This document shows positions 6,559 through 31,100 of a stretch of 44,853 bases of DNA, one piece after another. The translations under genes and the position numbers were made by a program. The notes beneath the pieces were generated by a model. That model did not search any database. It was not told the origin of the DNA and was given only the letters and a program-made list of their open reading frames with translations. How positions within the stretch are numbered: the stretch's first letter is position 1; every line of letters starts with the position of its first letter. The stretch is from an uncultured archaeon (GTDB taxonomy: Archaea > Aenigmatarchaeota > Aenigmatarchaeia > CG10238-14), in contig CAYMPD010000007.1 in NCBI GenBank assembly GCA_964392445.1, forward strand, positions 1 to 44,853. Direction: 5' to 3'.

Positions 6559-6960
6559 ATGAAGAAAGTTTTTGTATCATTTCGATTTACAGGGGAAGAT
6601 AAGAAAGAACTTAAAAAAATAATTCCTGAGATTCATAATTCCTTAGAAAAAATAGGTTATAAAGTTTACTCGACTATTTTTGATTCCGAAAAATTTAGCG
6701 AAGAAAATTGGACTGGTAAAGAAATAATGAAAAGGGTATTCAGAGAAATAGACAATTCTGATTTAGTTTTGTTCTTCGTCAGGAATTCAAAAGTAAGTCA
6801 AGGGATGTTAGTGGAATTGGGATATTCTCTCGCCAAGAAAAAGGAATTATTATTAGCTATCCAGAAAAATGTCAAAGAAAGTATATTCCGAAGACAAATA
6901 GATCAAGTAATTGAATTTGAAGATTTAGATGATTTAAAAGAAAAACTAGTAATGATTTAA
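6559..6960 (+). CDS. Nucleoside 2-deoxyribosyltransferase / Rcl-like family protein
   Basis: KVFVSF, IDNSDLVLFF, SQGMLVELGYSLAKKK; GGTGAGG RBS. Confidence 0.78.
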   Translation: MKKVFVSFRFTGEDKKELKKIIPEIHNSLEKIGYKVYSTIFDSEKFSEENWTGKEIMKRVFREIDNSDLVLFFVRNSKVSQGMLVELGYSLAKKKELLLAIQKNVKESIFRRQIDQVIEFEDLDDLKEKLVMI

Positions 6961-10347: not shown

Positions 10348-11541
10348 ATGTCAGATGAAGTGGATAAAGATATTCAAAGGTTCAAAAATCACATACATTC
10401 AATGTTAAATTCGGAAGAATTGCTAGAGTCACAAAGAAAAGTTCTTAAGAGATATGATAAGATGAACCAAGCAAACGAATTGGAGGTAAGAACAAGAAGA
10501 AATTATCTTTGTAATTTAAAATCCTTCAGCAAAGAAATAAAGAAACCATATAAAGAAATGACAAAGGATGATATAGTAGATTTTTGTGCTTATATTGATG
10601 AGAACTGGAAAAAGAACACAATTAAATCAGCTAAATTTACTATAAGAGCATTTTTTAAATGGTTATATGATTCTGATGATTACCCAAGTGTTGTGAGTTG
10701 GATAAAGCCAAAGTCTAGTCCTGGTAGTAGAAAGAACCGCGATGAATTATTAACTGAAGAAGAAGTTCTTAAAATGCTTAATGCAACTACTAATCCCAGA
10801 GATAAAGCCCTTATTATGTTATTATTTGAGATAGGGATAAGAGGAACACAAGCTAGTAGATTGAAATTAAAAGATGTTACTTTTGATGAGAACGGTGGTT
10901 TAATATTCATACGGGGGATGAAGAAAGGAAGAGATAGCAGGATAAGAACAATTCAATCTACCCCTTTTCTCAAGAATTGGATCAATAATCACCCAAGGAA
11001 GGATGATAGGGAAGCACCTTTATTCGTTTCATTGTATGCACCACACGGGAGATTTTATAGAGGTGGAATGTATCAAATGGTTAAAAGAGTGGCAAAAAGG
11101 GCTGGAATTAAGAAGAATGTTTATCTCCACCTTTTTAGACATTCCGCTATGACGAATTTAGTAGATCAGGGTTTTGTTGAGTCTGAATTGGAGATAATAG
11201 GTACATGGGTAGAGGGGTCAGAGGCAACAAAAATATATGTTCATCCTACTGAAGAAAGCGTAAATAAAAAAAGATTGAGGAAAGAAGGAATCTTTAAGAA
11301 GGAAGATAAGAAAACAGAGAAAATACTTAAACCTAAAAGATGCATTAAATGTGGTTTTGATAAAAACCCAGCGACAAATAAATATTGTGAGGAATGCTTC
11401 TTTCCATTGGATTCTAAGAGTGCTATGGAATTAGATGAAAAAAGGAAAGAGTTGGATAAGAAAATCGAAAAGTTACATCCTTTATTAAAGAAACTTGAAG
11501 AGAACCCAGACATTCTAGAAAAATTAAGCAACGCGAAATGA
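10348..11541 (+). CDS. Tyrosine recombinase/integrase with C-terminal Zn ribbon
   Basis: N-terminal core-binding region; EIGIRG (R), K in GMKK, HLFRHS (HxxR), GTW, KIYVH (Y); CIKC...CEEC. Confidence 0.93.
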   Translation: MSDEVDKDIQRFKNHIHSMLNSEELLESQRKVLKRYDKMNQANELEVRTRRNYLCNLKSFSKEIKKPYKEMTKDDIVDFCAYIDENWKKNTIKSAKFTIRAFFKWLYDSDDYPSVVSWIKPKSSPGSRKNRDELLTEEEVLKMLNATTNPRDKALIMLLFEIGIRGTQASRLKLKDVTFDENGGLIFIRGMKKGRDSRIRTIQSTPFLKNWINNHPRKDDREAPLFVSLYAPHGRFYRGGMYQMVKRVAKRAGIKKNVYLHLFRHSAMTNLVDQGFVESELEIIGTWVEGSEATKIYVHPTEESVNKKRLRKEGIFKKEDKKTEKILKPKRCIKCGFDKNPATNKYCEECFFPLDSKSAMELDEKRKELDKKIEKLHPLLKKLEENPDILEKLSNAK

Positions 11542-14442: not shown

Positions 14443-14967
14443 CTATCTTCTATGTGCCCTCGTAAAAGGTGAAGACCTCTCTCTCACTTTCAAAACTGTA
14501 AATGGTCTATGTCTATCGAAATCATAACCCTTTACTGCAAGAGACAAAGCCCAGAAATTGCTCAAGTCTTTGTTGATAATCTCATTGTTGTTACTGACAG
14601 CCCTGTTCGTTTCACTTATCAACTTCTTACAATTACTAGGTAAGATTAGTTCTTTACTCAAGAGCTTACCTTTAACAGAATCTATGAATGATTTCTTGTT
14701 ATCATCAGTGATCTTCTTATCTGTCCTTATACCTCTGTGAATATTACGGTCAATAACCAAGTTTCTACCTACTATAGTATTTGTGAGCAACCTATTCAAT
14801 TCCAAATCAAGTAAATACTTGGATATACTATCCAAATCTTGAGTTTCGGTTATCTCCTCAATTCTTAGTTTGCCGTTAGACTGTGATAGCAAAACTGAAC
14901 AGAATTCAAAGCTATCTTCGTTGAGATACACTCCACAATAATACCCTTCTAAATCTTTCTCACGCAT
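14443..14967 (-). CDS. Degenerate paralogue of the terminase RNase H-like nuclease domain
   Basis: Co-linear by eye with the C-terminal domain of the adjacent TerL; catalytic Asp positions not conserved. Confidence 0.55.
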   Translation of the reverse strand: MREKDLEGYYCGVYLNEDSFEFCSVLLSQSNGKLRIEEITETQDLDSISKYLLDLELNRLLTNTIVGRNLVIDRNIHRGIRTDKKITDDNKKSFIDSVKGKLLSKELILPSNCKKLISETNRAVSNNNEIINKDLSNFWALSLAVKGYDFDRHRPFTVLKVRERSSPFTRAHRR

Positions 14968-16232
14968 ACTTCATAATCCTCCGTAAACTTTTCCGCTACA
15001 TGATGCATTGGATTTCTATTAGCAAATACACATAAAGCCAGGGACATCACCATGTCGTCATGGTGCGGGTTTTTACTGAACTTGAAATTCCTCAGTTCGT
15101 TTATCAATTTACTGTCATTCGGAATTATTAATTTCTTGTTCTCGAACTTATTCCTCAGGAAGCTCAACAGATCCAACCTACTTTGCTTGGTGAATTTGAA
15201 CCCTTCCACTGGTAAACCTTTGTCTCGGATTTCCTCGAAAAGTGGTTCACCCAATCCCGTCTGATCAACAAGAATCTTGATGGGTCTGAAATTGTTGTTT
15301 ATCTGGTCTAGTACTTTCAACTGCTGGGAATAGTCAATCTTGTTGAACCTCTCGATATGAAATACCTTCAGATTGTTGGATTCAGTTCTTTGTACAACTG
15401 TGAATACCGAGAAGTCTTTGAGTTTAGCAAAGTCACAACCTACAAAATAAGTTCTGTCTTTTCCATGATTAACCATATCATATTCCTGAACACATGGGAG
15501 AATTAATGAATAGGGGAAGTAAGCGGTCTTCTCTTCCAGAAATTCGGCATTATACTCCTGCCTAAAGGTTAGTTCATCCATCTCATTTCTATCTTTTTCC
15601 AGATCCCTTTTGTTGATTGAAGGACATTGTTCTGATTTTATTTGCGACACAAAAGCACTCTTCCAGTTACTAAAGCATTCCCAGAAGAATCCTCGTTTTC
15701 CCAGAGGTGTTGATATTAACCATAAATTACCACCAGTCCGAATTAGCATTGGTTTGACAGCTCGATAATAAATTGAATCATCCTTGAAATGAGCAGCTTC
15801 GTCTATGTAAATAACGTCAGCAGAGTAACCAAGTATTGTTGAGATTGAATCTGGTAATGATATTATCCTAGAACCTGTGTCTAATTCTAGTTCGGTCTTA
15901 CTCCAGTTGTCAGAGTCTATACTGGGCTTCAGGAATTCATTAGTCTCTATTGTGGTCTTGATTTCTTTTAGGATTCTGACCGATTGTCTTAGTGAGGGCG
16001 AGAGTATCAACTGGAGGGAATTGGGTTGAGTAAACGCAGTATAGATGGACATAACTTTGATTACTGTTGATTTACCTGACTGTCGTCCCCAGACTAGGAG
16101 TTTGTTCTTAGAACTATCCAGAATTGCTTCTCTCTGATAATCATGTGGTTTGAAATCAAGAACTTGAGAAAGGAAGAAGATTGGATCTTGTTTACTTTTC
16201 TTCACAAATTCAGTTTTATCCATCATCACCAT
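14949..16232 (-). CDS. terL: Terminase large subunit
   Basis: Q-motif PHDYQ, Walker A GRQSGKS, Walker B IYIDEAAH, ISTP coupling motif, RQEYNAEF, nuclease VGCDFAK, LVDQTG, HDDMV. Confidence 0.92.
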   Translation of the reverse strand: MVMMDKTEFVKKSKQDPIFFLSQVLDFKPHDYQREAILDSSKNKLLVWGRQSGKSTVIKVMSIYTAFTQPNSLQLILSPSLRQSVRILKEIKTTIETNEFLKPSIDSDNWSKTELELDTGSRIISLPDSISTILGYSADVIYIDEAAHFKDDSIYYRAVKPMLIRTGGNLWLISTPLGKRGFFWECFSNWKSAFVSQIKSEQCPSINKRDLEKDRNEMDELTFRQEYNAEFLEEKTAYFPYSLILPCVQEYDMVNHGKDRTYFVGCDFAKLKDFSVFTVVQRTESNNLKVFHIERFNKIDYSQQLKVLDQINNNFRPIKILVDQTGLGEPLFEEIRDKGLPVEGFKFTKQSRLDLLSFLRNKFENKKLIIPNDSKLINELRNFKFSKNPHHDDMVMSLALCVFANRNPMHHVAEKFTEDYEVCVRKI

Positions 16233-16650
16233 CTTCGAATAGTTTGGATAATGTTAGATTCCCGGATAATTCTATGGACTTTGTTTGTTTTGGTGCTACA
16301 CCTAATTTCTGGAGGTTAAACACATAATCGTTCATTAATTTTCTCCTGAGTTTCATTATTCGGATACAGGAATTTACGTCGCCTTTTGCTTTGGCTTCTT
16401 TGTATAGATCCATTAATTCTTTTATGGAATTCTTGTGCGTGGTTTCTACTTCAACAAGTATTTGGGAATACTCTTCGTTTGATAATTGTTGTTTCAATTC
16501 TTTATCTAGTGCTTCAATATCTCTGTGGACCGTTCTTCTATTCACGTCTAGTTCTTCTGCTATTTCTGTGTTATTATATCCCTGGAAGAGTAATTCCATG
16601 ACCTTCTGTCTTCTGGCTACGACTTTCGGATGTGTGACATTCTGGGACAT
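16216..16650 (-). CDS. terS: Putative terminase small subunit (N-terminal HTH)
   Basis: QGYNNTEIAEELDVNRRTVHRDI HTH, helical middle region, overlaps the terL start. Confidence 0.7.
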   Translation of the reverse strand: MSQNVTHPKVVARRQKVMELLFQGYNNTEIAEELDVNRRTVHRDIEALDKELKQQLSNEEYSQILVEVETTHKNSIKELMDLYKEAKAKGDVNSCIRIMKLRRKLMNDYVFNLQKLGVAPKQTKSIELSGNLTLSKLFEDGDDG

Positions 16651-16841: not shown

Positions 16842-18161
16842 ATGACAGCTGAAATTGTGATAATGAACAAAGAAGCAATAGCTATTGCAGCCGATAGTGC
16901 GGTCACGATGATTGAGGAGGGGGGACAAAAAATTAAAACATCTGCAAATAAAGTTTTTACTTTGTCTAAGTATCACCCCGTTGGCATAATGGTTTATGGG
17001 GGAGCAATTTTTATGGGAATTCCATGGGAGACCATAATTAAGATTTACAGAAATAAATTGGGAAAAAAGAGGTTTGATACATTAAATGAATATACTGAGG
17101 ATTTCATAAAATTTCTAGATAATGGTAATCCATTATTCCCATCTTCTTTACAAGATGATTATTTAAAGAGCTCCATCTATGCTTACTTTAATTTTATTAA
17201 GATTAAAATCAAGGAAGAAGTAGAATCTAAAATTAATGAAAAGGGAGAGATCAGTAATAAAGAAATTAAAAAAATAGTATCGGAAATAATAAAAGAGGAT
17301 TATAGAACTTGGAACGAAACTGATAATATCTCATCTATTCCTGAAAAATATAATAGAGATATAATTGATAAGTACGGGAAGATAATTGATGAATCCATAG
17401 AAGAGATTTTTGAGGAATTACCCATGTCTAAAATCCTGTCAGATAAATTAAAAAAAATTGCAACGAGCTTATTTTCAAAATTTCCAGAAGGCGTTCAAAA
17501 AAGTGGAATTTCTGGTCTTGTTATAACTGGTTTTGGGGATAAAGAGACTTTTCCTTCAGTTAAATCGTTTTTTATTGAGGGAGTAGTTAATGATAGATTA
17601 AAATATAAAGAAGACGGGGATAGGTCTATGGAAATTAATTTTAAGTCAGGAGCCTCAATAATCCCTTTTGCTCAAAGTGAAATGGTAGAAATGTTCATGG
17701 AAGGAATAGATCCTTTCTATAGAAACATTGAGAAAAATTATCTATCTGAAGTTTTTAGTAAATATGCAGAAATAATTATTGATAGCATAGAAAAATATTC
17801 TAAAAATGAAAAAAATAAACTCAAAAAGAAACTGAATAAAATGACTAAAAAGATACTTAACGATCACAATGAAAAATTAGAAAACTACAGAAAGAGAAAG
17901 TATATTATCCCCGTTATAAATGTAGTTACGATGCTCCCAAAAGATGAGCTTGCAGCAATGGCAGAATCACTCGTAAATTTAACGTCCTTTAAAAGAAAAG
18001 TTACTATGGAAAGTGAAACAGTTGGTGGTCCAATTGACGTTGCTGTAATTTCCAAGGGTGATGGTTTTATATGGATTAAAAGAAAACATTATTTCAAGGG
18101 AGAACTGAACCCCCAGTTTTTTGCAAACTATTATAGAGGTGTGGGATATGAAAAAGAATAA
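16842..18161 (+). CDS. Putative Ntn-hydrolase (proteasome beta/HslV-like) with N-terminal Thr and large helical insertion
   Basis: M-T-AEIVIMNKEAIAIAADSAVT...NKVF and C-terminal ETVGGPIDVAVISKGDG match the two halves of the proteasome beta pattern. Confidence 0.62.
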   Translation: MTAEIVIMNKEAIAIAADSAVTMIEEGGQKIKTSANKVFTLSKYHPVGIMVYGGAIFMGIPWETIIKIYRNKLGKKRFDTLNEYTEDFIKFLDNGNPLFPSSLQDDYLKSSIYAYFNFIKIKIKEEVESKINEKGEISNKEIKKIVSEIIKEDYRTWNETDNISSIPEKYNRDIIDKYGKIIDESIEEIFEELPMSKILSDKLKKIATSLFSKFPEGVQKSGISGLVITGFGDKETFPSVKSFFIEGVVNDRLKYKEDGDRSMEINFKSGASIIPFAQSEMVEMFMEGIDPFYRNIEKNYLSEVFSKYAEIIIDSIEKYSKNEKNKLKKKLNKMTKKILNDHNEKLENYRKRKYIIPVINVVTMLPKDELAAMAESLVNLTSFKRKVTMESETVGGPIDVAVISKGDGFIWIKRKHYFKGELNPQFFANYYRGVGYEKE

Positions 18162-18723: not shown

Positions 18724-18984
18724 ATGAAATGGAAACTTTACTCATTTGTAATTAGGTCTAAGAGAAGGAAGGATATATTGCTGTCTTTGGAAAAGGCTAT
18801 GACACCTACAGAGATAGGGGATAAGGTTGGAGCAAGTGTTTCTCATGTGTCTAGAACTCTATCTGATTTCCAAGATCGGGAATTAGTTGAGTGTGTTACA
18901 CCGAAGCAAAAGGTTGGTAGAGTATATAAGCTAACTGAAGATGGTATGGAAATTTTAGAATATCTTAAAAAGAAGGATAAATAA
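18724..18984 (+). CDS. ArsR/MarR-like wHTH regulator
   Basis: MTPTEIGDKVGASVSHVSRTLSDFQDRELVEC...RVYKLTEDG. Confidence 0.82.
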   Translation: MKWKLYSFVIRSKRRKDILLSLEKAMTPTEIGDKVGASVSHVSRTLSDFQDRELVECVTPKQKVGRVYKLTEDGMEILEYLKKKDK

Positions 18985-18986
18985 GT

Positions 18987-19397
18987 TTAATTTTCAATAA
19001 ATTTATTGATTATTTCCAATGCTTCTCTAGGGATCTTATGATCAATTTTTGTGATTTTGGATAATTCAAACCATTTAGCTTCATTTATTTCTTCGTTTGG
19101 AAATATTTTTTCTTTCGCTATAACTATGAAATTCAAAGATACAAATTGTATATTAGGTTTTTTGGGGTGGATAAACTCTTCATGGGATAAAAACTTCGTT
19201 TTCATGACCTTGAGGTCTAATTCTTCTTTCAGTTCTCTTAACAAAGCTTTTTCCACACTTTCACCATGTTCAACATATCCACCAGGTATGCTCCAAGACT
19301 TTCCCCACATACCATCAGATCTTCTAATCAATAAAATTTTGTTCTTTTTTTCGTTAAATATTATTCCAGCTGTTATCAGATCAACACTTTTTTTCAT
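18987..19397 (-). CDS. Nudix hydrolase
   Basis: Nudix box GGYVEHGESVEKALLRELKEELDL. Confidence 0.92.
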   Translation of the reverse strand: MKKSVDLITAGIIFNEKKNKILLIRRSDGMWGKSWSIPGGYVEHGESVEKALLRELKEELDLKVMKTKFLSHEEFIHPKKPNIQFVSLNFIVIAKEKIFPNEEINEAKWFELSKITKIDHKIPREALEIINKFIEN

Positions 19398-19407
19398 AAA
19401 TTAAACC

Positions 19408-19872
19408 TCATTCCAAAATTAACCCCCCATGATAAGTTCTCTCATATATTTCATCGGATCTAAAAAATATTCTCTCAGTTCCTTGAAATCTTTCTACATC
19501 ACCAACCACTTCATTTCTGTATTTAAATTCACCTTTTTGATGTAATTCAGGTCCCCTAAACGGCATGGAAGCATCTACTAAAGTTAGACATTCTTTAAGA
19601 AATCTAAATGTAGCTTTTGATAAATCCTCGTAACCTTCTCTCATTCCACCCATGTAATTCATTCCCCAGATCGGCTCATCATTTCTCCATACTATTTCCT
19701 GACCAATGTCATACCTACTCCCAAAGTAACTGTCTCTATATATGAATTCTCCCTCTTTGTATAGATAATCTTTTGATGCTGTTTTGGAAGAAGCAACTTT
19801 CTCTCCACCTGTTGCAAAAGTATTCCTTTTGGCTCTTGCGATAAATTCTGATAATTCTTTTGTATTAATCAT
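19408..19872 (-). CDS. DUF5680-like protein
   Basis: AKRNTFA...YRDSYFG...GQEIVW..DEPIWGMNYMG...FRGP...Y.GG pattern recognised from recall. Confidence 0.75.
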   Translation of the reverse strand: MINTKELSEFIARAKRNTFATGGEKVASSKTASKDYLYKEGEFIYRDSYFGSRYDIGQEIVWRNDEPIWGMNYMGGMREGYEDLSKATFRFLKECLTLVDASMPFRGPELHQKGEFKYRNEVVGDVERFQGTERIFFRSDEIYERTYHGGLILE

Positions 19873-20705
19873 TGAAAACCACCATGATGGAAATAAATTC
19901 GAGATTCTTTACCTAATCTTCTACATAACCTTTTTATTTCACCTTTTAAATCCCTCCAATACATCCTATCCCCCGATTCGTATATCTTTCTATATCTCGG
20001 TAAGAGTTCAGGTACATTTTTCTCTAAAAACCTATAAACTCTTCTACGATTTGTGGGCCTTAAATTCAGATTTTCAAACATAAAATAATCCACAAATGGA
20101 GCAGAGAGTTCTAGGATTTCATCTATTTCAGTTATATAAGGAAATATGGGAGAAACAAATACATAGGTTCTTATACCTGATCTTTTACATTTTTTCAGGG
20201 CGGATATTCTTTTTTTTTGGGAAGCTGCAACGGGTTCCAATTGTTTGCTATAATTCCTGTTTAAGGTTGCTATAGAGATACCAACAGTTACGTCATCAAA
20301 TCTTCTTAAGATGTCTAGATCTCTCGTTACTAAACCTGATTTTGTTAATATCTCAATACTTGGTTGCTCATTAACGAGTTCTTCGAGAATTCTCCTGGTA
20401 AGCCTATACCGACCTTCAAGTGGTTGATAAGGATCTGTTACTGAACTGAACAGTAATGTCTTCCCTCTATATTGTCCATGGGCATTTACTAATTCAGGTG
20501 CATTTATTTTAACATCAACAAAACTTCCCCATGGTTCATCATGACCCGTAAATCTTTTCATAAACTCCGAATAACAATAAACACAACCATGCTGACAACC
20601 TACATATGGATTCACAACGTAATCTGCATCTGGGAGCTTGCTTCTGGTTATTATTCCCTTTACATTAATTTCCCTCACTTTAGGTCTTCTACTCATCTCT
20701 TTCAC
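19869..20705 (-). CDS. Radical SAM protein, spore photoproduct lyase-like (COG1533)
   Basis: VNPYVGCQHGCVYCY (CxxxCxxC), SSVTDPYQPLE, ILTKS. Confidence 0.88.
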   Translation of the reverse strand: MKEMSRRPKVREINVKGIITRSKLPDADYVVNPYVGCQHGCVYCYSEFMKRFTGHDEPWGSFVDVKINAPELVNAHGQYRGKTLLFSSVTDPYQPLEGRYRLTRRILEELVNEQPSIEILTKSGLVTRDLDILRRFDDVTVGISIATLNRNYSKQLEPVAASQKKRISALKKCKRSGIRTYVFVSPIFPYITEIDEILELSAPFVDYFMFENLNLRPTNRRRVYRFLEKNVPELLPRYRKIYESGDRMYWRDLKGEIKRLCRRLGKESRIYFHHGGFQ

Positions 20706-21453
20706 CCAAGGTTTCTATAAAACATAATGCTCTTAAAAATATTTCTATAGTATCTACATTAAATACATTTTCTGGCATTAGTTCATATCCTACAGTTCCA
20801 CCGCCTTTTAAAACTTCTTTAATAATTGAAGTTTCACCTTCTATTCTATTATCTTCTGTAGTTCTCTCAAATAGCCTATCAATTCCATTAATTGTCCTTG
20901 GTGTATATCCAAATATCACTGGAGATTGCCCTACATATTTAACCTTCTCATCAATGCCTTTCACAACCCCCTCTTCAACATCCACCAACCCATCTCTAAT
21001 AAAATCATCATAAACAAAAGTTAATATATCATAATTTCCTTCCAAAAACCTTCTTAATAATCTTTGTGATGCATCTGGGCACCCAATAGTATCAGAATGC
21101 ATTAACATAAGAGCATCTTCGTATAAAGAAAAGGCGTCTCTTATATCTAAATATCTGTTCCCGTCAAAAACTCGCAGACTAACGTCATCCCTTCCTAATT
21201 CAGATACCCTACTAACCACCTTATCTTTTTGTGAAGAGAACGTAGAAACTACTATTTCATCGAGTTCTGCGGGAAGTGAAGCGATACTGTATTCAAGAAG
21301 AGCTTTTCCATTTACTGGTAGCAAGCATTTGGGGTTCATAGGATACCTTGACCACTCTCTTAATTCCATTAACTTTGGAATATCATCATAGTCGGGAATA
21401 CTATTTCTTAATCTATTTCCATATCCTCCCGCGAAAACAAATCCTCTAACCAT
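20689..21453 (-). CDS. Nucleotidyltransferase (NTP_transferase, GT-A fold)
   Basis: FAGGYGNRL...PKCLLPVNGKALLEY with an insertion of about 20 aa between the motifs; MHSD; FNVDT. Confidence 0.82.
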   Translation of the reverse strand: MVRGFVFAGGYGNRLRNSIPDYDDIPKLMELREWSRYPMNPKCLLPVNGKALLEYSIASLPAELDEIVVSTFSSQKDKVVSRVSELGRDDVSLRVFDGNRYLDIRDAFSLYEDALMLMHSDTIGCPDASQRLLRRFLEGNYDILTFVYDDFIRDGLVDVEEGVVKGIDEKVKYVGQSPVIFGYTPRTINGIDRLFERTTEDNRIEGETSIIKEVLKGGGTVGYELMPENVFNVDTIEIFLRALCFIETLGERDE

Positions 21454-21906
21454 TTATATCACATCCAGCAATTCCCGAACAGATTCTGTGACATAATCCC
21501 CGTTCTTAGCGTCTTCAAGACTAAACCATCTTACTTCAGCTATTTCAGATGAATCGGGCTTGATATCCCCTTTAGCTGTTACTACATAATTTAATGAAAC
21601 AAAATGTCTTACTAGCTCAATTCCATCATAAACTCTATTATTTTGGAATCTTAAAAAACTACATGAGTTCATATCCAAATTCAATTCTTCTCTTAATTCT
21701 CTTCTAAGGGATTCTTCTGGAGTTTCACCATATCTCATACGACCACCAGGAATACTCCATTTATCCTTCCACAATCCATCCGTTCTTCTTATTAAAAGTA
21801 TAGAGTCATAGTCCTGAATGGTCGCTACTGGTGAATATTGATTATCCACATAATTTCCTAAAATTATTCCAGCTACTACTACACTTACATCATCCAATTC
21901 TATCAC
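21454..21906 (-). CDS. Nudix hydrolase
   Basis: Nudix box GGRMRYGETPEESLRRELREELNL. Confidence 0.92.
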   Translation of the reverse strand: MIELDDVSVVVAGIILGNYVDNQYSPVATIQDYDSILLIRRTDGLWKDKWSIPGGRMRYGETPEESLRRELREELNLDMNSCSFLRFQNNRVYDGIELVRHFVSLNYVVTAKGDIKPDSSEIAEVRWFSLEDAKNGDYVTESVRELLDVI

Positions 21907-23060
21907 TCTATATATAACGGGTCTGATTTATCAAACATTCTTTCAAATGGGTCTTCCCTGTCACTATATAAATAAGCAAAAATTTTACAGTGAGGAGGAT
22001 TCTCATCTAAACGACCCCAGTATCGCCTTCCCTTTTCATTACTCAATAATTCATCAACACGGGTATCCACAAGGCTGCCTAACACAAATGCGTCATTTAA
22101 TGGTTCTCCTTTGGGTCCAATTGCCCAAGCATCCGTAAGCAATATTCCACGGGATGTCAAACCCAAACCTTCTCTGTATAAATTACAAGGATTTACACCA
22201 GAAGTATAATATAATCCCTTTAAAGCACATTGTAACTTAACTGTTGGGCTACCGAGTTTTGCTTCCATATCCATCAAAGTTTCAATAGCCCTTATATATT
22301 GATCTCTTGTTGGAATACCGTCTGTCTTTTCAAATCCCCTTCCTACTGGGAAGTATCTCATTGGTTCAACTACATCAATACCTGCACCATGAAGGTTTTC
22401 ATAAAGAAGCCTTAACAAACCTTCTTCAATATTTCTCATATGTAAGGGCATCAAAGCCATAATCCTCAACCCATCTCTTTTAAATAAGCTTGCTCTTCCC
22501 AGATTCTGGTTATTATAACCACTCGGTCTAATGGGATCGAATCTGCCATCAGCATTATCATACGTAAATTCCATCCCAGATATGTAAGGAACTAATTCTT
22601 CGGGTTCTCTCATGGCTAAACCAACTCCAGTTGTACTTACTCCTAAATTTTCTCTGCCAAATTTCTGAGCAGCATATCTAATAACTTCAAGATTATCAGA
22701 ACAGATGAGAGGATCTCCACCTGAAAAGTCCAATTCAAGTCTCTTACTACCTTCGAGATGATCTATAACCTGTAACTTTTCTTCTAATGTCAATTCTAAA
22801 CCCTGCTCTTGTCTGAATCTCTCTGCTTGGTCATATAAACTTAGACTTCCATCTCTATCTAGATAATCAGTTCGAGTTAGTCCTTCTGATCGTATTCTCA
22901 CCTCATCTCTATCTCTAGTGACATGTACAGCATCTACACAACAAATATCACAATCCCAAGGACAAATTGTACTAATATTCCAGATTATATCCAAATCATT
23001 TAAGTATGGGTTTGGGTCAGTTCCATTTCTATCGTCTGAAACTAGATCTGGATTTGACAT
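21903..23060 (-). CDS. Radical SAM protein with partial SPASM/Twitch-like C-terminus
   Basis: WNISTICPWDCDICC (CxxxCxxC), DFSGGDPL, STTG; C-terminal LQC...NPC...TDAW...PHC. Confidence 0.88.
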   Translation of the reverse strand: MSNPDLVSDDRNGTDPNPYLNDLDIIWNISTICPWDCDICCVDAVHVTRDRDEVRIRSEGLTRTDYLDRDGSLSLYDQAERFRQEQGLELTLEEKLQVIDHLEGSKRLELDFSGGDPLICSDNLEVIRYAAQKFGRENLGVSTTGVGLAMREPEELVPYISGMEFTYDNADGRFDPIRPSGYNNQNLGRASLFKRDGLRIMALMPLHMRNIEEGLLRLLYENLHGAGIDVVEPMRYFPVGRGFEKTDGIPTRDQYIRAIETLMDMEAKLGSPTVKLQCALKGLYYTSGVNPCNLYREGLGLTSRGILLTDAWAIGPKGEPLNDAFVLGSLVDTRVDELLSNEKGRRYWGRLDENPPHCKIFAYLYSDREDPFERMFDKSDPLYIE

Positions 23061-23116: not shown

Positions 23117-23275
23117 TTATAACTCACTAATAGTTACATGAATTGAGCCTTTTTTCCCATCTTTTTTTATGTTTAATAGAAGCCGAGGAGACCTCTCAGT
23201 CTCCATCAACCCAGCAATCTCCGAACCAAACAGTTCTTCATTAACTCTTCTAACAGTTGTATTTACACTTTGCAT
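23117..23275 (-). CDS. 52-aa small protein (below ORF-track cutoff)
   Basis: MQSVNTTVRRVNEELFGSEIAGLMETERSPRLLLNIKKDGKKGSIHVTISEL; strong GAGGTGA RBS just upstream. Confidence 0.62.
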   Translation of the reverse strand: MQSVNTTVRRVNEELFGSEIAGLMETERSPRLLLNIKKDGKKGSIHVTISEL

Positions 23276-23867: not shown

Positions 23868-24476
23868 TCATAGATTACACCTATCACAATCCCCATTAAA
23901 CCTACAACTTCTGCATTTGTTGGCATTGGTTGTTGGTACTGGAACTCTTTTCCCGTTAAGAATGTCAAGTATTCTCTGCGTGGTTTCTTTGACCATATCT
24001 CTATGTCTGTTAGCAAACGGTTTCTCCCAAAACACTTGCTGAGTATCCCTGTTTCTTAGAACGGCTATAAGCGGCATTCCAGGATCAAGGTATTCCTCAA
24101 AAGCTAAACAATAGCCCCATACCTGCTTCTTGTTGGACATGTAAGCGTATGTGCCTGGTTTGTCGTCTATTATCACTATTTGACTTGGACTGAAATGCAC
24201 TTCATCTATAAGACCGTAAAGCAATTTTCCTCTTACTTCTAACTCTCTTGCGATTAGTGTGATTTTCTCCTTTTTAGATTTCTTCAGAGTTTGCTTGGGT
24301 GTTAATTCTAACTCTGCTTTCTTTTCATGCTCTTTTTCTAATTCAGAATGAACTTTTTTACCTAATTTCATTTTCTTTGTTTCTTCTGCTCTTACTCCCC
24401 TGACTCGTTCCAGGAAGATCTGATACTCACAATATGCTTGTGTGTTAAGTAGGCTTATTGGTATCTCGTTAATCAT
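23868..24476 (-). CDS. Solo Cas4-like PD-(D/E)XK nuclease with 4-Cys Fe-S motif
   Basis: AYCEYQ, GKKVH, GLIDEV, IIDDKP, QVWGY, KCRSCRFNGDC; no CRISPR array seen. Confidence 0.85.
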   Translation of the reverse strand: MINEIPISLLNTQAYCEYQIFLERVRGVRAEETKKMKLGKKVHSELEKEHEKKAELELTPKQTLKKSKKEKITLIARELEVRGKLLYGLIDEVHFSPSQIVIIDDKPGTYAYMSNKKQVWGYCLAFEEYLDPGMPLIAVLRNRDTQQVFWEKPFANRHRDMVKETTQRILDILNGKRVPVPTTNANKCRSCRFNGDCDRCNL

Positions 24477-24527: not shown

Positions 24528-27500
24528 TTATTTATTACTATTAAACTCCTCAATAATCTTGATTTTTTCAGGATTAAGCCCATATAATTTATAAACTAAT
24601 TGATCAATTTCTTTTTCTAGTTTTTTGACTTTTGCTTGTTTCTCAGGATTATCTAAATATTCGCTATCTTTAGTTATCAAGAGGATTTTATCTACTAGTT
24701 TTATGATGTCTGAAGTATTTCGAAGGTCCTTTGGGATTGGGATTTTATCTAAATATTGCGTGTGATACTTGTAGAACCCTCCAGAAAACATCGGACTGAT
24801 ATTTCTTATGAAAAAATCTATTAAAGGACTATTCAAAAGGGCGGTAAATATTTTGTAATTTTCCAAATCTTTCTGTCGTAAGATTATAGCGTAACAGTCA
24901 TGGTCTATACACATGAAATTATTCTTGTCGCTAAAATCATCTAATGCAAAACGATTTCTCTTGGATAAATTTGGGGTAATTATTTTTTTGGTTGCAAACA
25001 CTTCTATAGTACGTGGGTTCCAAATCTCATACCACTCCTTTCCCGCTTTAATTACATACGTTCTTTTCTTAAGTTGAGATTTATGAGTTTCTAAGTAAGT
25101 TTTTGTATTTGGAAAATTATTTAAATTTACTAATGAGGTTTTCCCATCTCTTAATTCATATGGATAAATTACATAACGATTGTCCCATCCAATGAAATAC
25201 TTTTTGATTTTCCTACCTTTAGGTAACTTTTTGATTAATTCAGGTTCGAGATTATGTTTTTTTATCGTCTCTTTATTTACAAAATAAGCTTTATTATTCC
25301 CCGTAATTAGTCCTTCATAGATTTTTTCACTATGGGTAGCTAAATTATCATATTTACTACTTTTTAACTTTTTCAGGAGTTTTAATATCTTCTTGTTGAC
25401 AAAAACCCAATTGTTCTTATCCAAATTAGATTGGTTGTATTTAAACGATGAAATATCTTCATTTTCAAATTTAGGTAAGCCTTTGGATAGGTTTAAACTA
25501 TGTAACAAACTCGAAGAGATTTGTTTAACATTAGCATAATAGATAATATTATCCTCGAGCTTTTCCTTTCTAAGCAAAATTATACATGGATAATTAGTTG
25601 CCCCCTCAAAAACTCCTTTATCACTGAAATCTATATAGATATTAATTGAGGTATGCTTCAATATAAATTCACGTATCTTACGACCGTAATGGGTATTGGT
25701 AAATTTATTTGGCATGATATATGATATGCTACCTCTTTTTCTTAAGATTTTGATCCCTAATTCCGTAAAAAGCACATAGAGATCAAATTTCCCTTTGGCC
25801 GAAATGAAGTTTGACTTATAGGCAGACTTAATTTCTTTATCAATTGATTGTATTCTAACATATGGTGGATTTCCTATAACAACATCAAATCCCGGATTCT
25901 CCCTCTGAAAAACTTCTGCAAAATACAATTTCCATAAGAAAAATGGTTTTGCTTTGTTCTTTTTATATTGTTTTAATTTTTTCATGGATTTCTCATTACC
26001 CTGTTCTTTGAGTGTTTCTTCAATTAATTCCCATTCTAATCTGTTTATTTTTTCTTTATGTTCTCTCTTGAGTTTCCTATTTTGTTCATTGAAGAATTTC
26101 TTCTGTAATTTTTTTAGGTCTTTTAGTTTTATCTGAGATTCCCTTATTCTTCTTTGCACAGCTTCATTCAAAGTTAAATTCCTTTCATTGTTATTGAATT
26201 TTGAAATAATCTTCTCCTTCTTCTTTCTTAGTCGTCGAATTTTTCTATCTATATCTTTTAGATTCTTTTCATCGGAACCTTTTCTGGCAATAATTCCCTT
26301 CTCTTCATATAATTCATTAATTTCATTATCAATTTCTTTTATTTTAGGAGAAACTTTCTCTTCAACTTCCCCAAGTAATCTCTCATCAAAAAGCTTGATC
26401 CCTTCAAATTCTTCTAATAAACTGTTACCACACATTATCTTATGGTCTAGATTTGGTAAGGGATTAATATTGGTTATATCCGTCTCATCTACAATTAAAG
26501 ATAACCACATCCTCAACTTACAAATCTGTACAGCTGATGGTTCAATATCAACCCCGTAAAGAGAATCTTCTATTATCTTCTTCTTCATATCATAGACATT
26601 CTCTTCTTTCCCAGAATATATTGATAATATGGATTGAGCTTTCTTTATTTCTTTCAACATGCCGATAAGAAATGCACCTGATCCACATGCCGGATCAACT
26701 ATTTTTATTTTCCCTAATAGACTATTGATCCTTTCTTGATTTTTCTCAATTGAATTCGGAATTATGCTTTCTTCATCCACATCACGTAACTCCCCATATC
26801 TTCTCCTTTGCTCCTGTGCTCTTATTGTTCGATCAAGGACTACATCTCCCATTTGGACAAATTTCTTAATGTCTTTATGAGGTATAGATATGTTTGTTTC
26901 AAGGTAGTTTATTAAACTCTGCTGGCACATATAATGAACTATTTCTCTGGGAGTATAGTATGCACCTTTAGATTTTCTCTCTTTGACATCTAGCAGTTTC
27001 TCAAAAACTTTACCTAGCATTTCTGGATCAACAGCAACCTCCTTTTCTAATGGTTCATCTTCTTTTACCGTAAAATTAAACCTATCAAAGGTATCAAAAA
27101 TTTCCTTGAAAATGGAATTATCCAGAGTTATCTCTGTCCCAGCCCAATCGTAATCATTTATAGGTTCAAATAAACCACCATTCAAGAAAGGAATTTTACA
27201 ATTAAACCTGCTATAATAGTCATGGTTAGCTCTCCTATCTTCTGCCAATGCTTCATAAAACAAGGGTTCTAATATTTCGTTAAAAAAGTTATCGTAATGA
27301 ACTATTCCCTTTTCAAATAGTTTTCTCATGAAATCTTTAGGTCCTGTTCCCCATTTATAAAAACCTTCTCCTGGACTCTTTTTAACCCCGAGCCATCCCT
27401 TCTTTTGTAAGAAATATAGGAATACAATTTGTCCCAACAATTTTTTAGCAAAATCAATGGTAGAAATATTTTTCTTTTCAAACTCTCCTTTGACATATTT

Positions 27501-28148
27501 ATTCTTATTGAGCAATTTTTCTAGTTCCTCTTTTAAATCGAGATAAAGTTCTTTATACTTCTTAAAGAAGTCTTCTGTAACTTTTTCAATACTAAAGGAT
27601 TCTTCAATTTCATCAGAAAGAGGATTCATCTCATCTTCCATAATCAATTCCAAGAATTGTTTTCTACATGTATGGTTTGGCTCATTCGGGCCAACTAAGA
27701 ACGAGTATCTCTTTGCGGGAGTAAGTTCCTTTTTCACTTTAACTTTCCCAGATTCACCCTTAACAAGATTATATTCCATCTTAACAAAAGAAAAACGCCA
27801 ATCTACCGTATCATCATAGAAAGCAACTAACGCAGCTTCTTTACGCATTTTTCCAAGCCAATTAGCTACGAAATTTCTTTGCATAGTCCTAGCTCTGTTT
27901 TTAGAGGAGGTTCTCTTTAACTTAACAACAAGTACTTCCATTTCTTTAGAATTTTTATCCTTGTAATTTCCTATCTGTATAAATTCTTCAATATAGTTCT
28001 TGTACTCATTAGCGATATAATTTGTACAATCCCTTTCCTTGACTTTAAACTCATTAAGTAGCTCTTTAACAAATTTAACATACCTTTTCAAATCAAAATT
28101 AGTCTTGAAAGTTTCATTGAGTAATTTAATCGTATTTTCTCGGTTCAT
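24528..28148 (-). CDS. Type IIG (Eco57I-like) restriction-modification enzyme, N6-adenine MTase
   Basis: FLNGGLF, GAYYTPREIV, motif I DPACGSGAFL, motif IV GNPPY, TaqI-C-like TRD. Confidence 0.9.
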   Translation of the reverse strand: MNRENTIKLLNETFKTNFDLKRYVKFVKELLNEFKVKERDCTNYIANEYKNYIEEFIQIGNYKDKNSKEMEVLVVKLKRTSSKNRARTMQRNFVANWLGKMRKEAALVAFYDDTVDWRFSFVKMEYNLVKGESGKVKVKKELTPAKRYSFLVGPNEPNHTCRKQFLELIMEDEMNPLSDEIEESFSIEKVTEDFFKKYKELYLDLKEELEKLLNKNKYVKGEFEKKNISTIDFAKKLLGQIVFLYFLQKKGWLGVKKSPGEGFYKWGTGPKDFMRKLFEKGIVHYDNFFNEILEPLFYEALAEDRRANHDYYSRFNCKIPFLNGGLFEPINDYDWAGTEITLDNSIFKEIFDTFDRFNFTVKEDEPLEKEVAVDPEMLGKVFEKLLDVKERKSKGAYYTPREIVHYMCQQSLINYLETNISIPHKDIKKFVQMGDVVLDRTIRAQEQRRRYGELRDVDEESIIPNSIEKNQERINSLLGKIKIVDPACGSGAFLIGMLKEIKKAQSILSIYSGKEENVYDMKKKIIEDSLYGVDIEPSAVQICKLRMWLSLIVDETDITNINPLPNLDHKIMCGNSLLEEFEGIKLFDERLLGEVEEKVSPKIKEIDNEINELYEEKGIIARKGSDEKNLKDIDRKIRRLRKKKEKIISKFNNNERNLTLNEAVQRRIRESQIKLKDLKKLQKKFFNEQNRKLKREHKEKINRLEWELIEETLKEQGNEKSMKKLKQYKKNKAKPFFLWKLYFAEVFQRENPGFDVVIGNPPYVRIQSIDKEIKSAYKSNFISAKGKFDLYVLFTELGIKILRKRGSISYIMPNKFTNTHYGRKIREFILKHTSINIYIDFSDKGVFEGATNYPCIILLRKEKLEDNIIYYANVKQISSSLLHSLNLSKGLPKFENEDISSFKYNQSNLDKNNWVFVNKKILKLLKKLKSSKYDNLATHSEKIYEGLITGNNKAYFVNKETIKKHNLEPELIKKLPKGRKIKKYFIGWDNRYVIYPYELRDGKTSLVNLNNFPNTKTYLETHKSQLKKRTYVIKAGKEWYEIWNPRTIEVFATKKIITPNLSKRNRFALDDFSDKNNFMCIDHDCYAIILRQKDLENYKIFTALLNSPLIDFFIRNISPMFSGGFYKYHTQYLDKIPIPKDLRNTSDIIKLVDKILLITKDSEYLDNPEKQAKVKKLEKEIDQLVYKLYGLNPEKIKIIEEFNSNK

Positions 28149-31100
28149 TTATTTCCCCACTAAATATTCTGATAGAATAACCTCTTTGGGTCCTGAAAGA
28201 TCTGCTGCTGTTCCAGCTAAATTTTCCTTAAATAGGAGAGGAGAAACACCTGCCCTTATTCTTGCTAAAATCTTGAGAGGGTTTGTTTCTCTCTCTATTT
28301 TTTCTAATATCTTTTTAACGGTCTTCTTAGCTATTCCACCTTCTTTCAACAACATGTAAAAATCCTGTAAATATTCCTCATCTTCTTCTGTAAATTCTTC
28401 TGAGTTCCTAATAGCTTTCAATATCTTAATCATCTTCGCCTCATGACTTCTACCTCCAGGACTTTTTAATTCTCCACTGAGATCTGTGAAGACTCTATTA
28501 AATTCCTTTTTATTTTCCTCTAAATATTCATAGAAATCATCACCTAATTTTTCTCTCTTCACGTTTTTCTTAGATTCCAAAATTTCGGCAGCTTCAGAGA
28601 ATTCAAGCTCTTTGACTTCTTTATTTCCAGATTGGTAAATCTTTCTTAGTTTCCCCTTTCTAAAAAAGGTTAATAGGGAATTATAGTTCTCCTCGTATTT
28701 TTTTGCAGTCCTTGCTTTCTTAGGGAGTCTTTTAATTCTCTCGAACAATTTTTTATCATTATCTCTAATATCTCTTAAAAGTTTAAGATATTTCAGCTCT
28801 GGATCTTCTTCATCCTCACCTACAATTAATTCTTTAGAGGCTAATTTCGTGAATAGATCATGAGATTTTATTTCTTCATCAGTTAGTAATTTAGCATCAT
28901 TCCCAAGCATTTCAATAAAGGTTTTTATTTTCGCCTCTGCGGCTTCCTTTAAACCGATGTTCTTATTAATCGGACCAGCTGGGAAGAAATTATATGTGTA
29001 GATGTTATCGAATGGTGGACTCTTACTGACTCTATTTACACGTCCTACCCGCTGCATCATTTTAACTGGATTCCACGGAATATCATAATTAATAACAACA
29101 TTAGATCGATGTAAGCTAACACCCTCTGATAAAAGATCAGTGGAGATCAATATCCTTATATCATCCTTTTGCTTTTTCTTTGGGAGATTAGCATCATAAT
29201 TATCAATGACTTTTTTTCTTTCATATTCCGAAGAATCTCCTGAGATAGCCATAACCTTGTTTTCAAACTCGGGATCCAAGTTCTTTTCAACATATTCAGC
29301 TGTTTCTTTTGACTCTGTAAAGACAAGTAATTTATGTTTCTTTAGTATATTATCTTGTTTAAGTAATTCAATAAATTTCTCCAGTTTAGGATCGTGATTT
29401 ACCTCCCGCCACATATTTTCTATTTGTTCTAATATTTCACGATCATGCTTTAGATGCTTGATAAAATTAGATTTAAACTCTTCTGATGAATATCTTTGAG
29501 CTTTATCCTCCTCAATAAGTTTCTGCACAGCCTCGTCATTATCACTTTCCAATAATTCGAATATCTTGTTGATATGCTTCTTACTGGTAAAAACTTGTCC
29601 CTTTTCATACTCTTCAATGAATCTATCGTAAGCATGAATGAATCTATTTATAGATTTCTTAAATGCGAAAAAACTACTTTCCAATCTTTTCAAGAGCAGG
29701 ATTTTCATAAATCCACCCATGTTCTTCTGAGAAAGTTCTTCTGGTTGAGAAATATCCTTTTTAAGATATAATAAGGGCGTGTATCTCGCGTATTTGAATT
29801 TCTTCATTATTAGCTCAAGAGTTTTATCGAATATTTCATCCAACTTTCCATCAAAATGATAGAGAATTGGTTTTGGTTTTTTAACTTCAGGGAATTTCAA
29901 ACCTTGTTTTTCTAAATCCTTCTTATAATATTTAATTATACTACTCCTTGTTCTTCTTACCATTAAATGTCTTAGAACATTTTTTCTTATACTTCTAGCG
30001 TTCTCTTGGACAACTTCAATATATTTTTCCTTATCTTTCACTCTATCGAGATTCTTAACTCTTCTGTGAAGTCTTTTGAAATATCTTTCTAGATCTCTTA
30101 CTTTAGGATTAGGTAATGTTGATCTATGAGCCCTTTGGAACAATTTTATTTGAGATAAAATATCAAGAGGGGTATTGTTCATGGGTGTTGCTGAAACCAG
30201 TATAATTCTTTTACCTCTACATATCTCAAACAATTTCTCATACATTTGAGTCATTTCATTTCGGAATCTATGACTCTCATCAATAATTATGTTCTTGTAC
30301 TTACTTGGGTCCCTTGACAATACTTTATCTAGCTTCCCTATAGACTGGAAATGAGCACTGACTCGCACATCAAGAAATACATTGGGCCAAGAGCCGGGAC
30401 TATCTCTGTTCAGTAAATTTGGAGGAGCGATCACTAAAGTTCCACCATCCAACTCTTTTGCAAGTATAGCAGCGATATAAGTTTTTCCCAAACCAACTAC
30501 ATCTGAGACGAAGACACCACCATACTCTTCTAGTTTCATTTTAGCGTCTCTAACAGCATCCTTTTGATATTCCAAATCCATAACATTTTCCGGTAATCCT
30601 TCCTCGAATAATTCCCGTTTATCTATGTTGATTTTCTCTCTAAGGTATTCGTAAAGGAATTTAAGGTATAAATCATAAGGTGTGATTTCTTTATTTAACC
30701 ACGTTTTTTTCTTGATAATATCAACATACTTTTCCGATACATCAACAGAATTTTCCCATAGTTCATTAAACTTCTCCAGTGAAAATTCGTAATCTGATAT
30801 ATTCTTCAATTCTACATTAAATTCCAGGTTATCTTTCAGACCAGATTTCGTGAAATTACTAGAGCCCGTTATTACTCTCCCATCATCTCTATCCCCCCTT
30901 CTGAATGTCATTATATAAAGTTTCGCATGAATTTTTTTAGTGGGATAAGCCCTTATTTCTAATTTCCCAGATTTCAACCACTCAACAAATTTCTTAGCCC
31001 CTTTTTCAACTTTTTTAGAATCCTTGGAATATTCAAATTCTTCAATAGTTTTACTAGAAATACTCTTCTTGATTTCTTTGGAGGACCGATAAAAGTTATC

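Follow-up and report, generated by a model that had tools for sequence, protein, structure and literature searches.

Several described systems lie close to the locus examined here, a six-gene operon on the minus strand at 18987-23060 of a 44,853-nucleotide (nt) contig from an uncultured archaeon of the Aenigmatarchaeota (GenBank assembly GCA_964392445.1, contig CAYMPD010000007.1, positions 1 to 44,853; the whole stretch is called the window below). The operon encodes two radical S-adenosylmethionine (SAM) enzymes, two Nudix hydrolases, a nucleotidyltransferase-like protein and a DUF5680 protein. In oxetanocin biosynthesis, the radical-SAM enzyme OxsB and the phosphohydrolase OxsA form a nucleoside pathway. 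Enzymes of the spore photoproduct lyase (SPL) clan act on thymine-type bases by abstracting hydrogen at C5/C6 or from an adjacent position. The "radical SAM mobile pair" (TIGR04471 protein A and TIGR04470 protein B), found for example on Bacteroides plasmids, is annotated and functionally uncharacterised. In Pseudomonas phage M6, the gp51-gp54 cluster includes gp53, which isomerises N-alpha-glycinylthymine on DNA (PMC8989533). The Ophion system consists of the radical-SAM protein OpnA, the PHP phosphoesterase OpnB and the phosphoribosyltransferase (PRTase) OpnC; it has a phage phenotype, and interfering nucleotides have been proposed as its products (bioRxiv 10.1101/2025.09.30.679545).

Judged by its sequences, the operon belongs neither to the viperin family nor to the TIGR04470/TIGR04471 pair, SPL or the M6 cluster. 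By analogy, it would work like the known kind of system that combines a radical-SAM enzyme with nucleotide kinases and phosphohydrolases. We read it as a rare and enlarged version of an uncharacterised cassette that recurs and moves horizontally between archaea and bacteria. On this reading, which we regard as evenly poised between right and wrong, the cassette tailors a nucleoside that is phosphorylated and probably a pyrimidine. An earlier note on this DNA, made by a model from the letters and a list of open reading frames (ORFs), knew of no described system with this gene set, and our searches agree. In PADLOC-DB 2.0, only the two Nudix proteins matched, to the single-gene candidate PDC-S07 (E 3.6e-15 and 3.2e-19), the other matches having E-values of 1e-3 to 1e-5, and no known multi-gene system was recovered. 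Our literature search found no paper on DUF5680, no description of what the radical SAM mobile pair does and none of this gene combination, nor any name, structure or paper for the family of the first radical-SAM protein.

The six co-directional ORFs begin with rSAM1 (21903-23060, 385 amino acids (aa)), a radical-SAM protein of an unnamed SPASM/twitch-class family; its gene is the hub around which the related cassettes are built. It is followed by NudixA (21454-21906, 150 aa), a MutT-like Nudix hydrolase and lineage-specific paralogue of NudixB; NTPtr (20689-21453, 254 aa), a divergent and nearly orphan GT-A, MobA-like nucleotidyltransferase-like protein; rSAM2 (19869-20705, 278 aa), a radical-SAM protein of the SPL/COG1533 clan near "mobile pair protein B"; the DUF5680 protein (19408-19872, 154 aa), a small stand-alone domain; and NudixB (18987-19397, 136 aa), a MutT-like Nudix hydrolase that is a conserved member of the cassette. 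Going from rSAM1 to NudixB, the first pair of genes overlaps by 4 nt, the second abuts (0 nt), the third overlaps by 17 nt and the fourth by 4 nt, and the last pair is separated by a 10-nt gap. ORF coordinates and Pfam matches confirm the gene set, junctions and domains that the earlier note had described, and its picture of a translationally coupled operon on a mobile island is supported. One junction is probably shorter: because a GGTGA Shine-Dalgarno motif precedes the ATG at 20696, rSAM2 probably starts there and overlaps NTPtr by 8 nt instead of 17 nt. Shine-Dalgarno-like motifs stand before four of the six starts, and the start codon of rSAM1 has a G-rich Shine-Dalgarno motif (GGGGGGGG) 6 nt 5′ of its ATG.

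The same six genes were found in the same order on another metagenomic element (loci L038/L046), with protein identities of 60-81% and unrelated flanks; similarity to the window ends at the 3′ end of the operon, and on the 5′ side those contigs are truncated or rearranged. This second occurrence between unrelated flanks indicates that the arrangement is not due to chance and that the operon moves as a block. In L046 (1500-2906), rSAM1 lacks its first ~76 codons and is preceded in continuous sequence by a coding region for a metallo-beta-lactamase (MBL)-fold protein (HxHxDH), the result of either a rearrangement or an assembly chimera. Beyond these two elements, the six-gene set is the exception, and the recurrent core consists of rSAM1, rSAM2, DUF5680 and one MutT-like Nudix protein. 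Further contigs of DPANN type (L001, L007, L030, L039, L047 and L050-52) carry the core in the order rSAM1-(kinase)-rSAM2-DUF5680-Nudix; in these, the two radical-SAM genes are separated by a P-loop AAA_17 kinase gene, sometimes with a PfkB kinase gene, or by nothing. Among these sister cassettes, that of L001 sits between ribosomal protein genes and that of L039 is flanked by restriction-modification (R-M) genes. The conserved co-occurrence for which the earlier note had proposed a search is therefore real for the core of four, but the six genes are not a functional unit, NudixA being a paralogue and NTPtr having a single full-length relative.

To place rSAM1 in its wider context, neighbours were clustered across 83 non-identical rSAM1 loci from genomes and metagenomes, each anchored on rSAM1, with genes called by simple ORF rules and every partner assignment lying below curated equivalog cutoffs. 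With these approximate frequencies, rSAM2 was the most common partner (32 of 83 loci, and 18 of the 36 with enough flanking DNA), followed by a polytopic membrane protein lacking a Pfam match (19 loci), DUF5680 (18), a PreA-like dihydropyrimidine/dihydroorotate dehydrogenase with a 2x[4Fe-4S] tail (14) and an unnamed ~290-aa protein (9). TrmB-like regulators and Nudix proteins each occurred at 8 loci, AAA_17 or adenylate-kinase-like kinases at 7, PfkB ribokinase or nucleoside-kinase-like proteins at 6, caspase-HEAT proteins at 5, and uridine-kinase-like proteins and APH-type kinases at 4 each; MatE exporters, ATP-grasp proteins, purine nucleoside phosphorylase (PNP)/methylthioadenosine (MTA)-nucleosidase-like proteins and a HAD-IIA phosphatase were also present. 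These partners are mostly nucleoside or nucleotide enzymes, which supports our reading. The recurrence of PreA-like and uridine-kinase-like partners points to a pyrimidine as the substrate, and the interchangeable kinases and phosphohydrolases (Nudix, HAD-IIA) that accompany rSAM1 suggest that the substrate is phosphorylated for recognition and that the product is trimmed or released. The PreA-like reductase and the exporters accompany rSAM1 in bacteria, and the most economical interpretation of the pattern is a modular pathway. The pairwise identities of rSAM1 and rSAM2 also co-vary (Spearman 0.74, with none of 999 permutations as high), which fits co-inheritance, with shared host ancestry also contributing.

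Some of the same partners would suit a quieter role in symbionts with reduced genomes, namely the recycling of a modified nucleoside or of a radical-SAM by-product such as 5′-deoxyadenosine, or the feeding of a cofactor pathway, with no part in conflict. Many carriers of rSAM1 do have reduced genomes (Aenigmarchaeota, Woesearchaeota, Nanoanaerosalina, Patescibacteria, Cardinium and Schmidhempelia), MTA/S-adenosylhomocysteine-nucleosidase-like proteins, ribokinase- or ribose-1-phosphate-kinase-like proteins and APH-type kinases are among the partners, and the L001 cassette lies among translation genes. However, the genome of the window is the only one of 61 from the same order with an rSAM1 orthologue, the cassette is patchy across phyla and is island cargo here, two radical-SAM enzymes would be a costly route to salvage, and no curated salvage or cofactor family was matched. 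We consider such a housekeeping role improbable.

The rSAM1 protein carries the cluster motif CPWDCDIC, and its Pfam Radical_SAM match is weak (21 bits). An alignment of 27 family members contains 35 invariant positions and shows the CX3CX2C cysteines at C33, C37 and C40 together with three invariant C-terminal cysteines, C278, C292 and C358; K95, R178, R235, R241 and K359 are conserved as well. A CX3CX2C core with a cysteine-containing C-terminal domain for an auxiliary cluster is the mark of the SPASM/twitch class, although in rSAM1 the auxiliary cluster itself is predicted. PF13186 (SPASM) is precomputed on several homologues. The AlphaFold model (predicted local distance difference test (pLDDT) 90) gave its best structural matches to SkfB (Z 24.3 over 294 residues, with a root-mean-square deviation (rmsd) of 3.5), SuiB (Z 23.3), anSME (Z 21.7), PqqE (Z 21.3), viperin (Z 21.1, rmsd 2.6 over 247 residues), BlsE (PDB 7vob, Z 20.6) and MoaA (Z 18.3). 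Those to SkfB, SuiB, anSME and PqqE run over the whole length, and the C-terminal extension superposes on that of SPASM/twitch enzymes. A Foldseek search of the model agrees with the SPASM/twitch placement and has CteB among its top matches. Sequence and model taken together place rSAM1 in the SPASM/twitch class of radical-SAM enzymes, in no named family, and its auxiliary cluster is probably held by the three C-terminal cysteines. No curated family model was reached, a sequence search of the PDB gave nothing usable, and a search of the ESM Atlas returned generic radical-SAM clusters only. A word-index search recovered 161 homologues, 40-81% identical to rSAM1, in organisms as different as Woesearchaeota, Streptomyces, Burkholderia (including B. 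ubonensis, locus L018) and Cardinium, and the archaeal and actinobacterial members are 40-50% identical to each other.

The earlier note had remarked that rSAM1 lacks the N-terminal signature of viperin, and the curated viperin models concur. The protein scores 17.2 bits on NF038283 against a cutoff of 180, and its match to the PADLOC prokaryotic viperin (pVip) model PDLC02903 (21.5 bits, E 3e-5) covers the cluster-binding region only. It also has an extra C-terminal domain with the three invariant cysteines that viperin lacks, and the cassette of the window adds a second radical-SAM enzyme and DUF5680. The two resemble each other in the broad structural class of their radical-SAM enzymes, in having nucleotide kinases or phosphohydrolases as neighbours, and in often residing in islands. 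The fold class of rSAM1 includes the nucleotide-acting viperin, MoaA and BlsE (Z 18-21), in keeping with a nucleotide substrate. Nucleoside natural-product pathways offer a comparable logic, with a radical-SAM step on a nucleoside or nucleotide followed by phosphate trimming, and bacterial versions of our cassette carry MatE exporters; the differences are that there is no membership at the level of sequence and that the cassettes of DPANN archaea have no exporter. Ophion, compared here by its description, likewise joins a non-viperin radical-SAM protein to a phosphoesterase and an enzyme of nucleotide metabolism, but none of the scanned neighbours of rSAM1 had a PHP or PRTase domain. A molybdenum cofactor pathway was also considered, since rSAM1 has a MoaA-like fold and NTPtr is MobA-like; this was rejected, as no MoaA or MobA family model was matched and no MoaC, MoaD or MoaE genes lie nearby.

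The peptide-modifying SkfB, SuiB, anSME, PqqE and CteB among the top structural matches raise the question of whether rSAM1 matures a ribosomally synthesised and post-translationally modified peptide (RiPP), in which case the nucleotide enzymes would be unrelated passengers. A 52-aa ORF (23117-23275, minus strand) lies just upstream, within the 438-nt spacer before rSAM1, and could be put forward as a precursor. This ORF is predicted only and has no homologue in any related locus. Moreover, in those loci whose upstream sequence extends for 450 nt or more, no conserved small ORF or leader peptide precedes rSAM1, which argues against a RiPP role; many loci have no small ORF at all, and the spacer upstream of the L001 gene is only 138 nt long. 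No PqqD-like recognition domain, protease or ABC exporter recurs, whereas nucleotide enzymes do. We therefore think it very improbable that rSAM1 is a peptide maturase, and return to the nucleoside-tailoring cassette as the preferred reading.

The second radical-SAM protein, rSAM2 (Radical_SAM, E 4e-16), carries the motif CQHGCVYC (CX3CX2C). Its best curated match is TIGR04470, and it is 44% identical over 261 residues to the "radical SAM mobile pair protein B" of a Bacteroides plasmid; both systems have two adjacent radical-SAM genes on mobile DNA. However, the score of 257.7 bits is below the cutoff of 410, which makes rSAM2 part of a sister family and not a member. The likeness ends there: protein A of the pair has 222 aa and is unrelated to the 385-aa rSAM1 (hhalign probability 2%), no protein of the operon matches TIGR04471, and the Bacteroides pair follows an MBL hydrolase gene and comes without DUF5680 or Nudix genes. 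The next NCBIfam scores of rSAM2 are those of the PA0069 (161 bits) and Rv2578c (142 bits) models. In a comparison of its family profile with the PDB, the best match was SPL at E 0.006, a similarity at the level of the clan, and with 21 bits the protein stays far below the cutoff (400) of the SPL model TIGR04070. Pseudomonas phage JM2 encodes a 480-aa orthologue of M6 gp53 that aligns with the core of the 278-aa rSAM2 (27% identity, E 2e-15), but the mobile-pair B and PA0069 families are far nearer relatives of rSAM2. The JM2 protein has the CTVGCAFC motif published for M6 gp53, and its gene lies between genes for a pyridoxal phosphate (PLP)-type enzyme and a thymidylate-synthase-like protein. 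By analogy with its clan, the chemistry of rSAM2 fits a pyrimidine substrate. Acidianus two-tailed virus (a bicaudavirus) encodes a radical-SAM protein that has 33% identity to rSAM2 across 73% of its length; an SPL-clan enzyme is therefore present in archaeal viruses, unlike rSAM1, which was not found in phage or plasmid collections by tblastn or in IMG/VR by a pattern scan.

These relationships give weight to our main rival explanation, that rSAM2 works on a thymine- or uracil-derived base in DNA, in lesion repair or hypermodification, and so protects the DNA of the island or host, for example from restriction, while the Nudix proteins only sanitise the nucleotide pool. The membership of rSAM2 in the COG1533/SPL clan and its whole-core alignment with a protein from a thymidine-hypermodification cluster suit this idea. 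So do the SOS regulation of COG1533 genes in several bacteria (PMC8565304), the location of the operon, which shares its virus-like island with an adjacent type IIG R-M system, and the presence of a P-loop kinase both in the sister cassettes and in the M6 cluster. The M6 cluster itself has no rSAM1, DUF5680 or Nudix gene, and Pfam and PHROG scans of the larger ORFs of the island (covering nearly all that reach 90 aa), several of which had no family match, found no maker of a modifiable base: no enzyme forming 5-hydroxymethyldeoxyuridine, no dUMP/dCMP hydroxymethylase, no 5-HMUDK kinase, no aGPT-Pplase and no PLP decarboxylase or other PLP enzyme, distant analogues being possible. When the P-loop kinase of L001 was compared with the product of the JM2 gene next after the radical-SAM gene, a putative counterpart of the M6-type kinase, no similarity was seen. 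The MatE exporters and polytopic membrane protein of the bacterial versions are better suited to a diffusible small molecule, none of the phage, plasmid and IMG/VR collections that we searched contains the hub gene rSAM1, and sister cassettes occur in core chromosomal contexts. Weighing both sides, we regard a DNA-directed role as unlikely, yet as a serious competitor to the tailoring of a phosphorylated nucleoside.

Both Nudix proteins are well above the PF00293 cutoff of 21.1 bits (NudixA, E 5e-23 and 82 bits; NudixB, E 5e-21 and 75.5 bits), and when compared with the Nudix box GX5EX7REUXEEXGU their boxes are intact (GRMRYGETPEESLRRELREELNL in NudixA, GYVEHGESVEKALLRELKEELDL in NudixB): the catalytic glutamate and arginine are kept, and only the late glycine is replaced, by asparagine in NudixA and aspartate in NudixB. 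The two are 38% identical to each other (E 1e-27). NudixA is found at its position in the operon only here and in L038/L046, and NudixB is 63% identical to the terminal Nudix protein of the sister cassette L001. Both resemble (d)NTP pyrophosphohydrolases of the MutT, NudG and NudI types, which are also the best curated matches of NudixB, with no equivalog cutoff reached; this resemblance agrees with a nucleotide pathway. NTPtr is more remote. Its match to NTP_transf_3 (PF12804) scores 27.4 bits, barely over the cutoff of 27, and covers residues 7-150 only, and an N-terminal FAGGYGNRLR loop of the G-x-G-x-R nucleotide-binding type is present. An exhaustive HMMER search of 1.84 billion representatives recovered a single full-length relative (60% identity) and three others that match over short N-terminal stretches only, and no relative was found in the PDB by sequence.

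The DUF5680 protein (PF18931, E 6.5e-34) was modelled with a pLDDT of 93 as two repeats of one helix and four antiparallel strands. Foldseek gave no match to a solved fold at E 0.001 or below, the best VIA-align Z of 5.5 is within noise, with weak rows only to effector domains of the UTRA/chorismate-lyase type, and a sequence search of the PDB gave nothing usable. In the ESM Atlas, this fold is mostly a C-terminal domain fused to an XRE helix-turn-helix in Bacillota, and the same arrangement is seen in P0130. The C-terminal domain of an XRE regulator is the usual position of an effector-binding domain, and this suggests ligand binding by DUF5680. By this analogy, the protein is probably a small-molecule binder acting as a carrier, a sensor or a self-protection protein. 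It had no phage match, and on plasmids of Bacillus and Rahnella it occurs as a lone gene with no radical-SAM gene; the Rahnella copies adjoin genes of the glyoxalase/bleomycin-resistance type. A prediction of a complex between rSAM2 and DUF5680, made with alignments, scored 0.00, and we conclude nothing from it.

From the gene content, recurrence, mobility and family placement described above, we infer a substrate, an order of steps, a product and a biological role for the cassette. The committing step would be a radical reaction by rSAM1 on a phosphorylated nucleoside, with a pyrimidine ribonucleotide as the likeliest candidate. A further radical reaction, at the base or at a substituent of it, would fall to rSAM2. 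The Nudix enzymes would trim the (modified) nucleoside triphosphate (NTP) to the monophosphate (NMP). NTPtr and the duplicated Nudix protein NudixA occupy the position of the P-loop kinase in the sister cassettes, and for this reason we propose that they adjust the phosphorylation or activation state. DUF5680 may bind the product or an intermediate, and what the pathway delivers would be an unusual nucleotide or nucleoside that serves as an antiviral or antibiotic weapon in conflict or helps to protect the element. The earlier note had proposed a pathway that makes, activates and detoxifies an unusual nucleotide. The gene neighbourhoods uphold nucleoside or nucleotide chemistry, but the three individual roles came from family names whose matches are below equivalog cutoffs.

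Several points weigh against this reading. The matches of the accessory enzymes are all below curated cutoffs, which leaves their specificities as guesses. The top structural matches of rSAM1, SkfB and SuiB, are peptide-modifying SPASM enzymes, and the Z-scores fail to separate these from viperin or MoaA. The only characterised relatives of rSAM2, SPL and M6 gp53, act on DNA and not on free nucleotides, which qualifies the interpretation in the earlier note and leaves room for a DNA-directed role. Half of the well-covered rSAM1 loci have no rSAM2, the partner census is biased by its anchoring and by its gene calls, and the kinases together with the MTA-nucleosidase-like gene could instead serve the disposal of 5′-deoxyadenosine.

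With respect to biological role, the actinobacterial relatives deserve attention. In Streptomyces and other actinobacteria (L003/L004 4123-10091, L011, L013, L015 and L017), rSAM1 stands in a set that runs EACC1, caspase-HEAT (~1150 aa), rSAM1 and HAD-IIA phosphatase. The caspase-HEAT gene and rSAM1 overlap by 4 nt in Streptomyces, and in L013 rSAM1 and the phosphatase are fused in one 708-aa ORF. Linkage of caspase-HEAT and EACC1 is a hallmark of conflict systems (PMC7159879), and the actinobacterial set looks like such a system built around the same radical-SAM family. This brings into play an anti-virus defence of the viperin or Ophion kind, in which rSAM1 would turn an NTP into a chain terminator during infection while the other genes supply, trim and buffer. 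Radical-SAM systems with phosphoesterase and nucleotide-enzyme partners have been validated as defences, namely pVips and Ophion (bioRxiv 10.1101/2025.09.30.679545), the operon lies beside R-M and nuclease genes in its island as the L039 cassette does beside R-M genes, and the Nudix matches to the defence candidate PDC-S07 point the same way. On the other hand, the viperin models were not reached, PADLOC recovered no known multi-gene system, several sister cassettes are chromosomal, among ribosomal genes and under TrmB-like regulators, and the bacterial versions with exporters resemble metabolite clusters. An antiviral role is plausible from the island setting and the caspase/EACC1 linkage and fits poorly with the chromosomal, regulator-linked copies; as the explanation of the cassette as a whole, we hold defence of this kind to be quite unlikely. 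The antiviral option raised in the earlier note was not substantiated, given that rSAM1 did not appear in the searched viral and plasmid collections and that sister cassettes are also found among ribosomal protein genes.

A bolder version of the nucleoside-tailoring reading can be formulated, which we consider possible but doubtful. According to it, rSAM1 founds a new functional class of nucleotide-acting radical-SAM enzymes and, with its SPL-clan partner, builds a modified pyrimidine nucleotide not seen before, for use in conflict by DPANN archaea, bacteria of the candidate phyla radiation (CPR) and actinobacteria. The conflict would be waged by mobile elements and cells, by means of an antiviral or antibiotic nucleotide or of DNA hypermodification. 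DUF5680 would be the binding or immunity protein, and in actinobacteria the same enzyme would be connected to effectors of the caspase type.

The operon is cargo of an integrated virus-like island of about 24 kb (9800-34300, approximate bounds). The host genes that flank it, for pyruvate:ferredoxin oxidoreductase gamma (POR-gamma) and an ATP-grasp protein, are 24.6 kb apart here and only 1.3 kb (G001) and 3.3 kb (G004) apart in two genomes of the same genus, from which it follows that about 24 kb has been inserted. The island encodes a tyrosine integrase (10348-11541), the large and small terminase subunits (14949-16650) and a protein with a strong match to phrog_5990 (16842-18161). This spacing, together with the integrase and terminase genes, bears out the mobile-element setting proposed in the earlier note, and the R-M and nuclease cargo that it had noticed is also present: a Cas4-like nuclease gene (23868-24476), a PD-(D/E)XK gene (31639-32862) and, between them on the minus strand (24528-31364), a gene for a 1206-aa methylase-specificity protein of the Eco57I/MmeI-type IIG class, directly followed by one for a 1071-aa fusion of a phospholipase D (PLD) nuclease and an SNF2/ResIII helicase. 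Judging from its domains, this IIG and PLD-helicase pair with its flanking Cas4-like and PD-(D/E)XK genes looks like a defence module of the DISARM or type-ISP kind. Apart from the phrog_5990 match, the island has no recognisable capsid or portal gene, and no convincing direct repeat was found to bound it as attachment sites. From its gene content, it could be a provirus that has undergone reduction or an element resembling a satellite.

At its 3′ end, the operon abuts a convergent plus-strand gene for an 86-aa winged-helix protein (18724-18984; HVO_A0261_N, E 2.5e-10), the stop codon of which is 3 nt from that of NudixB. This gene may encode a local regulator, its membership of the operon being unproven. 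Other winged helix-turn-helix or TrmB-like regulators adjoin the cassette at sister loci, and no homologue of the 86-aa protein was found beside L038. The only RNA element of the window recovered from Rfam is a tRNA-Gln(CTG) outside the island, at 38883-38972 (minus strand), whose length of 90 nt is consistent with an archaeal intron. In the host flank, beside the POR genes, a 133-aa protein (6559-6960, plus strand) has weak matches to nucleoside 2-deoxyribosyltransferase (E 1e-7) and TIR_2-like (E 3e-4) domains.

In conclusion, this locus may add an uncharacterised family to the nucleotide-acting radical-SAM enzymes. Of these, viperin, MoaA, OxsB, M6 gp53 and OpnA each brought new chemistry and often new mechanisms of immunity. 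Were the product of rSAM1 known, the ligand of DUF5680 would become testable, as would the roles of the SPL-like "DNA repair photolyase" paralogues found outside sporulating bacteria. The cassette is one of the few accessory pathways common to DPANN archaea and CPR bacteria, and, as the window demonstrates, a virus-like island of an archaeon can carry it along as cargo.

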